This document shows positions 7,242-10,200 of a DNA stretch of 64,000 nucleotides, piece by piece. Where the stretch lies: contig CAWCRS010000003.1 in assembly GCA_963798085.1 (NCBI GenBank), forward strand, positions 928,001 to 992,000, given 5' to 3'. The notes beneath the pieces are model-generated. The model did no database searches. It worked only from the letters and a program-made list of their open reading frames with translations, and was not told where the DNA came from. Origin of the DNA: an uncultured Gemmatimonadales bacterium. Its GTDB lineage: Bacteria > Gemmatimonadota > Gemmatimonadetes > Longimicrobiales > RSA9. The translations under genes were made by a program, and so were the position numbers. Position 1 is the first letter of the stretch. Every line of letters begins with the position of its first letter.

Positions 7242-10200
7242 GTTCCGGCGTAACCGAATCCATCGTCGAAGATGCTGCTCTGGCCTGGCTGCAAGCCATC
7301 GGCTGGCAGGTGGTTCATGGACCTGACATCGCTCCCGACATGCTCACGGCGGAGCGGCGTGATTATGCCGATGTATTGCTCGCCGGCCGCTTGCGTGCCG
7401 CTCTTGAACGACTCAACCCCGACCTGGCCAACGAAGCGCGCGAAGATGCCTTTCGCAAACTGGCGCGCCCGGAGGGCGCGGACCTGATTCACCAGAACCG
7501 CGCCGTGCACCATCTGCTCGTCAATGGTGTCACCGTGGAGTATCGCACTGCGGAGGGGCACATCCGCGGCGCTCAGGCACTAGTGATCGACTTCGATCAC
7601 CCTGCCAACAACGACTGGCTGGCGGTGAATCAGTTCAGCGTGGTCGAAAATAAACACAGCCGCCGTCCCGATGTCGTGCTTTTCGTGAATGGCCTGCCCC
7701 TCGCCGTCTTCGAACTAAGAATGCGGCCGCGGAGGAGGCGACCGTCTGGACGGCGTTCCAGCAGTTGCAGACCTACAAGGCAGAAATCCCGTCGCTGTTC
7801 GCATCAAACGCGGTGTTGGTTGCATCGGATGGCACTGACGCGCGCATTGGTACGCTCACCTCCGGTCGCGAATGGTTCAAGCCGTGGCGGACCATTGAAG
7901 GAGAAGACCTGGCCGATGCATTGCCACAACTCCAGGTAGTGATCGAAGGCGTTTTCGCGCATTGTCGCTTTCTCGATCTCGTGCGTGATTTCGTCGTATT
8001 CGAGGCTGACGGCAGCGGCACTCTCAACAAGATGACCGGGTACCACCAGTTCCATGCGGTACAGGTTGCGGTGCATGAGACACTCCGCGCGGCGGAGCTG
8101 TACACAGGCGTGGTAACAGCAGGTCCCCGAGCGCTCAAGCTTGTGCAACCCAGGCCAATCGATCGCTACAGGAACTGTGTGCCACTCGTACCGCTCAGCG
8201 CCGCGGCAGGCGCGTTCGGCGATCCGCAGCACCTTCCGGACGAGAGCGATTTCGATTGGGTTGAGGTCGACACGCGACGTCGGCTTCGGCCCGGAATGTT
8301 CGCCGCGCGCGTCGATGGGCACTCGATGGAGCCGGCCATACCCAATGGTGCGGTCTGCCTGTTCTCCTCGCCTGTCGAGGGCACGCGCGCGGGCAAGACC
8401 GTTCTCGTTCAGCTGCGCGACGCAATCGATCCCGACACGGGCGAGCGATACACGGTCAAACGATACGAGAGCACGAAGGCCGATGCCGGCGAGGGTTCGT
8501 GGCGGCACGAGCGAATCATGCTGAAGCCGATGAATCGGGAGTACTCAGCAATCGAAATCGCCGGCGATGAGGCCGAGCGCGTGCAGGTAGTTGCGGAGTT
8601 CGTGGAAGTTCTCGAAGCCAGCTCGGGAACTGACATGAAGTCCGGGCGACCGCCGCATTGGCGTCGTCTGGCACACGCAGGGCTCCGGGAAGAGTCTTAC
8701 GATGGCCTTTTACGCGGGCCGCATCATCCGCGAGCCGGCGATGGAGAATCCGACGATCGTCGTGCTCACGGACCGGAACGATCTGGACGACCAGCTCTTC
8801 GGCACTTTCTCTCGCTGTCAGGACCTGCTGCGCCAACCACCGGTGCAGGCGGATTCGCGCGCAAACCTGCGTGAGCTGCTCTCCGTCGTGGCCGGCGGCG
8901 TGGTCTTCACGACCATCCAGAAGTTCTTTCCCGAGGAGAAGGGCGACAGGCATCCGATGCTGTCCGAGCCGGCGGAACATCGTGGTCATCGCCGATGAAG
9001 CGCACCGCAGCCAGTACGACTTCATCGACGGCTTCGCCCGGCACATGCGGGACGCACTGCCCCACGCTTCCTTCATCGGTTTTACCGGAACGCCGATCGA
9101 GCTGACCGGACAAGAACACGCGGGCGGTATTCGGCGACTACATCAGCGTGTACGACATCCAGCGCGCCGTCGAGGACGGCGCCACGGTGCCGATCTACTA
9201 CGAGAGCCGACTGGCAAAGCTCGCGCTGGAGAGACCGAGCGCCCGAAGATCGACCCGGACTTCGAGGAGGTGACGGAGGGCGAGGAGGTCGATCGCAAGG
9301 AGAAGCTGAAGACGAAATGGGCGCAGCTGGAAGCAGTGGTCGGTGCCGAGAAGCGCATCCGGATCGTCGCGCAGGATATCGTGGAGCACTTCGAGAAGCG
9401 GCTCGAGGCGATGGACGGCAAGGCAATGATCGTCTGCATGAGCCGCCGCATCTGCGTGGAGCTGTACCGTGAATCGTGAGGCTGCGCCCGGCCTGGGAGC
9501 ACGACGACGACGACAAGGGATTGATCAAGGTGGTGATGACGGGCTCGGCGTCGGACCCGGTCGACTGGCAGCCACACATCCGCAACAAGCCGCGGCGCGA
9601 GGAACTGGCCAAGCGGTTCAAGGACGCCGCGACCCGCTGAAGATCGTGCATCGTGCGCGACATGTGGCTTACCGGATTTGACGCTCCGAGCCTGCACACG
9701 ATGTACATGGACAAGCCGATGCGCGGGCATGGCCTGATGCAGGCGATCGCGCGCGTGAACCGCGTGTTCAAGGACAAGCCCGGCGGGCTGGTGGTGGACT
9801 ACCTCGGGCTGGCCCACGAGCTGAAGGCGGCGCTCGCGACCTACACAGAGAGCGGAGGCAAGGGGCCGCACCGCGGTTGACCAGGGAGAGGCCGTAGCGC
9901 TGATGCTGGAGAAGTACGAGGTCTGCTGCGACCTGTTCCACGGCTTCGACTGGTCGCCCTGGATTACACGGGACGCCGCAGGAGCGTCTCGGCCTGCTGC
10001 CGCCGGCGCAGGAACACATCCTCAACAGGAAGACGGCAAGGAGCGGTACATCACGCGCCGTGCGTGACCTGTCGAAAGGCGTTCGCGCTCGCTGTTCCGC
10101 ATGAGAAGCGCTTCGAATACGGGACGACGTCGGATTCTTTCAGGCCGTCCGGGCGCGTGCTCGCCAAGTGCGCCCGCGACGCGGCCGGACGAGGAACTCG

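Follow-up and report, generated by a model that had tools for sequence, protein, structure and literature searches.

How a restriction enzyme spares the host chromosome while repair is under way is understood only in part. Restriction alleviation is ascribed to ClpXP for types IA and IB, and to assembly of the complex for type IC (PMC12707154). The HsdR subunit of EcoKI is recognised while translocating, and a tag for ClpXP was reportedly sought and not found (PMC4231737). For the type IC enzyme EcoR124I, Gln276, Lys313 and Thr314 of HsdR are all described as contacting ATP in crystal structures (PMC4454674). In LexA-like proteins, ClpXP tags are said to be concealed beside the cut site (PMC5742171); a terminal Ala-Ala is given as necessary, not sufficient, for recognition by ClpXP, and a Leu five residues from the end helps (PMC10862746). 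Cryo-electron microscopy of RecA filaments is reported to show F203 of RecA held in a LexA pocket formed by F111, L113 and V153, together with an acidic patch (PMC9926225).

The window, which is the whole stretch of 64,000 nucleotides analysed here, contains an hsdR gene into which an S24 peptidase module of the LexA/cI type is inserted in frame, after the Q motif and before the Walker A motif (Table 1). The open reading frame at 7765-8874 runs from the end of the HsdR nuclease through the Q motif into the Peptidase_S24 match, and the genome has one copy of the module. A sequence-only reading of this DNA had placed about 170 extra codons here, and the motifs it named lie where it put them: YHQFHAV at 8041-8061, LRAAE at 8083-8097, [11 protein letters not shown] at 8179-8211 with Ala-Gly at 8206-8211, DGHSMEP at 8314-8334 and TVKRY at 8452-8466 with the Ser and Lys listed in Table 1, and LKPMNREY at 8521-8544. 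The motor restarts in another frame from 8645 with [17 protein letters not shown]. Q motif and Walker A stand 202-215 residues apart in 40 HsdRs with the insert, namely those internal forms among the best 120 of 1,446 matches in which both motifs are visible, compared with 30-54 in 13 insert-free HsdRs, which gives a net insert of about 155-175 residues. The proposed S24 identity was confirmed by a hidden Markov model match to Pfam Peptidase_S24 (PF00717; 30.9 bits against a cut-off of 23.3, E 2.3e-7). Intact relatives of about 1,203 residues have the same design, which bears out the in-frame insertion. Both junctions are shared by intact relatives from independent sources; no chimeric join was seen, and a chimera or one-off artefact is rejected. 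A tail-form relative matches EcoR124I HsdR with E 3.7e-35, and this alignment places the insert in the loop that leads from the helix after Gln276 to the strand before Lys313/Thr314.

Table 1. Features of the restriction locus and of the S24 module in hsdR (window positions; paired counts refer to the best 120 of 1,446 matches and to 79 more diverse rows)
Feature	Position	Strand	Remarks
hsdM, type I methyltransferase	3294..4960	+	N6_Mtase matches; frameshifted as assembled
hsdS, specificity subunit	4948..6272	+	in pieces as assembled; Methylase_S match under cut-off, E 0.0011
Mrr-like nuclease gene, two pieces	6269..7241	+	Mrr_cat; PADLOC PDC-S02 E 2.7e-77; between hsdS and hsdR
hsdR with internal S24 module	7238..10844	+	HSDR_N, SWI2_SNF2 and T1RH-like_C matches
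Q motif (Gln 8047-8049) and its helix	8041..8097	+	upstream of insert; region aligns with EcoR124I HsdR around Gln276
N-side linker of insert, variable	8101..8163	+	columns poorly conserved; 16-30 aa, median 23, in 40 relatives
S24 module core	8164..8613	+	PF00717; model pLDDT 93.6; LexA Z 12.5, lambda cI Z 11.1 (predicted fold)
Predicted cleavage site PLSAAA/G (cut at the slash)	8191..8211	+	N-terminal product would end Ala-Ala
Predicted catalytic Ser	8323..8325	+	120/120 and 79/79
Acidic hairpin loop	8416..8451	+	about 8 residues longer than that of LexA; ends in Tyr, Lys-3
Predicted catalytic Lys	8458..8460	+	120/120 and 78/79
C-side linker	8614..8644	+	9-11 aa in 40 relatives; contains one frameshift in assembly
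Walker A (GSGKS) of motor	8681..8695	+	downstream of insert; aligns with EcoR124I Lys313/Thr314

The removal of one G at about 8645 had been expected to restore the reading frame. A break does exist there, placed at 8617-8638 depending on the reference used, but it is just one of 18-20; the extra base near 8620-8645 is not identifiable, and a single repair does not regain the whole gene. In frame-aware alignments the window hsdR is 82-84% identical to intact relatives of 1,203 residues, with 20 single-base frameshifts against P0003/P0004, 18 against L082, and no in-frame stop. The module core is free of frameshifts, and the nuclease, Walker A, DEAH and C-terminal domain are retained, spread over shifted frames. 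Two of the intact relatives clear the TIGR00348 cut-off of 285 bits, P0004 with 588 and L082 with 576. hsdM is 81% identical to the intact HsdM of L082 with 5 frameshifts. Linkage of hsdM and hsdS (3294-6272) to hsdR is likewise seen in L082, where the operon is complete: hsdM, hsdS, two genes, and hsdR with its fused module. The two genes of L082, a DUF3644 gene and one for a Schlafen AlbA_2/RecG-C/HTH protein, stand in place of the Mrr-like gene of the window, and the difference marks the slot between hsdS and hsdR as a variable cargo site.

Assembly error is the likelier cause of the frameshifts. A long-decayed pseudogene is disfavoured by the absence of in-frame stops and of a clear excess of amino-acid changes: changes specific to the window HsdR number 60 non-synonymous to 121 synonymous, and the corresponding figures are 30:93 for L082, 18:32 for L083 and 8:18 for L084. 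The window copy may nevertheless be dead by recent decay, since its 10-kb bin is broken up much more than the genome is (0.22 vs about 0.8) and most breaks fall at runs of just two bases. Source reads were sought in sequencing runs and none were found; no run contained over 0.06 of the words, and the four runs examined contained relatives alone. The run search listed no RNA run containing the window sequence. The locus as a whole is a low-GC island (0.61 vs 0.67). At its edge (1359-2009) are a PIN-domain gene and a small upstream partner, likely a toxin-antitoxin pair of the VapBC type. Directly after hsdR, at 11204-18191, a membrane-protein gene that is broken is followed by an OmpA protein resembling ZorB (12983-13531; PADLOC ZorB, E 3e-14) and by a long SF1 helicase, also broken, with a REase_MTES_1575 nuclease at its end (13691-18191). 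The set resembles a Zorya-like ZorAB pair whose helicase-nuclease partner is unusual.

A search for the module among proteins of 512-2,000 residues yielded 1,446 matches from 2,812 candidates, of which the best 120 were analysed. The dyad and the Ala-Gly site, on whose conservation the sequence-only reading depended, proved nearly invariant. Ala occupies P2 and P1 in 120/120 and Gly follows in 117/120 of these; both Ala and Gly are found in 76 of the 79 more diverse rows, three of the deviant rows there starting after the cleavage site, and all of these values are inflated by the selection of rows for likeness to the query. The Ser and Lys, assigned as a dyad by sequence match, are even more constant (Table 1). 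The cleavable Ala lies 39 residues before the Ser, within the 35-39 residues that define an Ala/Cys-Gly site of this family. AlphaFold2 predicts a LexA-type fold from an 80-row alignment with a mean pLDDT of 93.6. The top eight rows of a VIA-align comparison with this model are LexA, cI and UmuD' (Z 9.0-12.5), the best match to each being 12.5, 11.1 and 10.2, respectively, and the closest predicted viral folds are those of cI-like repressors. Sequence searches of the PDB returned nothing meaningful with the single module and just weak LexA/cI matches with a profile (E 0.3-0.4); none of the PADLOC or NCBIfam models matches the module by itself.

Among the best 120 of the 1,446 matches, the module lies inside HsdR in 43 and at or near the C-terminus in 77, a count that includes P0103 with its 196-residue tail after the module. 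Thirty of the 40 internal forms with both flanking motifs are at least 1,195 residues long, and these have the DEAH motif in 30/30 and the nuclease pattern in 27/30. By record name, the internal forms within the best 120 come from Longimicrobiales, Armatimonadota, Acidobacteriota, Nanopelagicales and Planctomycetota. The fused form is present in an open frame in 3/60 related genomes, L082 among them; the HsdR part alone was matched in 12/60. A quick, midpoint-rooted tree was built from 77 modules picked by hand. Of its 19 internal modules, 18, including that of the window, fall together (SH-aLRT 98) within the tail modules, which suggests that the internal form arose by a single insertion from the tail form. 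A quick HsdR tree with long branches requires two changes for the internal form and does not settle a single origin.

Other HsdRs carry the same module at their C-terminus, as do type ISP/IIG enzymes, DruE-like helicases and further nucleases; in a third group of HsdRs it lies within the nuclease domain. Among 1.84 billion representatives searched there were 3,210 matches, some of them to the HsdR part. Among the matches listed, module carriers with more than 60 residues upstream numbered 71, and 69 were scanned, two HsdR fragments being left out. Restriction, nuclease or helicase partners occur in 33 of the 69, a helix-turn-helix (HTH) in 4 and no Pfam partner in 32. The partners are type ISP (9), HsdR (5), MZB helicases (5), HNH (3), IIG methylase, PLD, Schlafen AlbA_2 and SLFN-g3 helicase (2 each), and LlaJI, McrBC and DUF3037 (1 each). 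PADLOC applied to 20 picked proteins named DruE, DrmMI, IIG and type III. Partners of 1,970 residues were at one point considered DISARM DrmAB, an assignment dropped when their best PADLOC matches turned out to be DruE. In a phylum sample of 400 other genomes, with five candidates scored per genome, the module was detected in 9; nine copies are C-terminal and one interrupts the nuclease of a different HsdR type, an arrangement also seen in L029.

Several members of the wider family have features of their own. L029 (7650-10592) and L045 encode another type of HsdR, in which the module interrupts the nuclease immediately ahead of GRADYVL...AVIEAK. The type ISP/IIG carriers P0103, P0123, P0129, P0139 and P0153 have a further 180-200 residues after the module, and at least three of these tails have a common motif like R.SAIRELA.ELGY. 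P0266 is a 287-residue protein with two tandem S24 matches. Nitrospina/Nitrospinaceae proteins of about 300 residues (L030-L035) give a distant match to that half of the module which contains the cleavage site, and a Nitrospinota cluster likewise appears among the Atlas search matches. Annotated phages gave no match to the module, and a plasmid collection gave one record. The one close viral contig, of 58.6 kb in IMG/VR, carries a tail-form HsdR-S24 (L086, 887-4489). In a Halomonas record (L085, 3977-6444) a 686-residue nuclease-helicase-like open reading frame precedes, across a frame change, a copy of the module with 42% identity; should this break prove an error, Halomonas would be a cultured host of the family.

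These features are best accounted for by a built-in form of restriction alleviation, in which RecA-ssDNA would induce self-cleavage of HsdR and turn restriction off; the probability of this reading is put at roughly 0.55. The module is likely an active autoprotease. A cut at Ala-Gly would part a fragment of about 325 residues, consisting of the nuclease and the Q-motif helix, from the motor, with the S24 body left on the motor, and would split the ATP site. The new end of the fragment, Leu-x-Ala-Ala-Ala, would serve as a ClpXP tag, leading to destruction of the nuclease and the adenine-binding helix and shielding the chromosome when repair makes unmethylated sites. In tail forms the whole enzyme would inherit the Ala-Ala end. 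The predicted end is AAA in 38/40 and VAA in 2/40 internal forms, with the Leu in 74/79 rows. Open frames for recA, lexA and clpX are present in the genome, whose tmRNA tag ends in LALAA. Three points temper this proposal. The cleavage loop of LexA contains Ala-Ala too, as do 3/4 HTH-bearing relatives, so the pair is perhaps kept for catalysis alone. The halves may stay bound after a nick in a surface loop. Finally, plasmid-launched alleviation of EcoKI is independent of SOS induction (PMC11109961), which shows that cells have other alleviation routes.

As to the trigger, RecA-ssDNA filaments are a probable one. Two of the three positions of the pocket for RecA F203 are kept, with Phe at Ser-8 in 78/79 rows and Tyr or Phe at Lys-3 in 75/79. 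The position of LexA L113 is Ala in 74/79, and the acidic loop before the Lys is present, about 8 residues longer than in LexA and often ending in Arg. The surface offered to RecA therefore differs from that of LexA, and partial retention of the contact residues makes RecA dependence plausible. The altered surface would also permit another trigger, and has a place in the opposite and rather unlikely proposal that self-cleavage, set off by RecA-ssDNA or a phage recombinase, frees or unblocks the nuclease for stronger restriction or cell suicide. A precedent for a damage-triggered defence nuclease is GAPS4, which is reportedly set off by DNA damage (PMC13748975). The partners of the module, which include DruE-like helicases, Schlafen and HNH proteins, are in keeping with such a role, and from the tail position, the commoner one in the best 120 of the 1,446 matches, a cut could shed the module like an inhibitor. 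The internal form, however, would shed nothing, the S24 body staying on the motor; in L029 and L045 the cut would land within the nuclease fold and break it; and the freed fragment would carry the Ala-Ala end that is likely a degradation tag. Shedding of an inhibitor fits the tail form only, and release of a nuclease fits the ATP-site form, not the nuclease insert, whereas inactivation fits all three positions if the Ala-Ala end is a ClpXP tag. Of the two outcomes that the sequence-only reading proposed, an off-switch and a free nuclease, the off-switch is the better fit, since in other HsdRs the module lies inside the nuclease fold.

It is less likely still that the domain serves mainly to pair subunits or to tether the enzyme to RecA filaments on recombining DNA, cleavage being slow or a reset. 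Type I enzymes have two HsdR subunits, which such a domain could dimerise. The S24 domains of LexA and UmuD are described as dimers that bind the RecA groove (PMC9926225). The module has a family-specific conserved surface reaching far beyond the dyad, yet the dyad and Ala-Gly, which pairing does not need, are nearly invariant. The domain of the phage 186 repressor, presumably a non-cleaving S24 fold, is structurally more distant from the predicted model (Z 8.8, 12% identity). Cleavage in trans of a different protein, for instance a repressor or an anti-restriction protein, is very improbable: UmuD is reported to cleave between molecules (PMC9926225) and S26 signal peptidases have the same fold as the model (Z 5.0-6.4), but the module retains its own Ala-Gly site at self-cleavage spacing, and no recurrent partner gene was seen in the three operons read.

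Values of dN/dS for the module against three relatives are 0.19-0.26, compared with 0.05-0.11 for the flanking HsdR, synonymous sites being near saturation; the module is under purifying selection. Its faster evolution than the flanks, its rarity in the phylum sample and the variable nature of the loop, which in relatives accommodates inserts as long as about 25 residues, might suggest a functionless, repressor-derived passenger, an idea that can hardly be credited given dN/dS well under 1, the invariance of the catalytic residues and the module's recurrent fusion with restriction enzymes unrelated to one another.

In addition to built-in alleviation of type I restriction, a broader role can be put forward tentatively, on somewhat less than even odds. 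The portable S24 module would be a general circuit breaker that wires the RecA-ssDNA signal into type I, ISP, IIG, IV and Druantia-like enzymes by a cut and a latent ClpXP tag, with no transcription, the internal form deriving from a tail module and splitting the ATP site. The family gives a defined predicted cut site and a defined predicted tag. Its internal position is the most telling, since a cut there divides the enzyme, so that on- and off-switch models predict opposite outcomes. If the proposal is true, DNA damage, prophage induction or incoming ssDNA could open a window for gene transfer, which phages could exploit, and the module might find use as a damage-responsive degradation tag.

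No published account of an S24 domain attached to a restriction or defence enzyme turned up in literature searches covering few subscription journals; supplementary tables of domain architectures could mention the fusion. By word search, 10.1101/2025.07.24.666596 and PMC5714182, considered as prior descriptions, are both unrelated, and LexA, S24 and peptidase are not mentioned in the main text of PMC12707154. Automatic protein names in the databases already record an S24-HsdR fusion.

With the C-terminal domain of LexA (MEROPS S24, PF00717) the module shares its predicted fold (Z 12.5, rmsd 3.1 Å over 130 residues), the Ser-Lys dyad, Ala-Ala-Gly, a Phe and acidic patch near the RecA pocket, and the predicted Ala-Ala end. 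It is only 20-24% identical to LexA and, unlike LexA, has no DNA-binding repressor domain and sits inside an enzyme; an additional residue precedes its cleavage site, Ala takes the place of L113, the acidic hairpin is longer and there are extra strands. The spacing from Ala to Ser is 39 in the module, 38 in lambda cI and 35 in LexA, and that from Ser to Lys is 45 in the module and 43 in cI, with an aromatic residue at Lys-3 in both. The likeness to phage XRE-S24 repressors extends to 4/69 scanned carriers that are HTH-S24 proteins. These repressors and cI control transcription, whereas the module would control the integrity of an enzyme; the N-terminal HTH of LexA/cI repressors is absent, and HsdR nuclease and Q motif lie upstream in its place. 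The module would act as a switch, as in LexA and cI, but it is not a repressor. UmuD also has an S24 domain that controls an enzyme at the protein level on RecA filaments, and its cleavage activates polymerase V; UmuD is a separate subunit, whereas the module is fused within its target. The predicted outcome, proteolysis of HsdR when unmethylated host sites arise, is that of ClpXP-dependent alleviation in EcoKI and EcoAI, which involves no self-cleaving domain. The nearest solved structure, that of EcoR124I HsdR (type IC), has the same order of nuclease, Q motif, Walker A and DEAH, but just a short loop from Gln276 to Lys313 in place of the module, and its alleviation is ascribed to complex assembly (PMC12707154). 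HsdR with an internal S24 module is thus a real, conserved and apparently undescribed type I variant, in which known parts are joined by new wiring.
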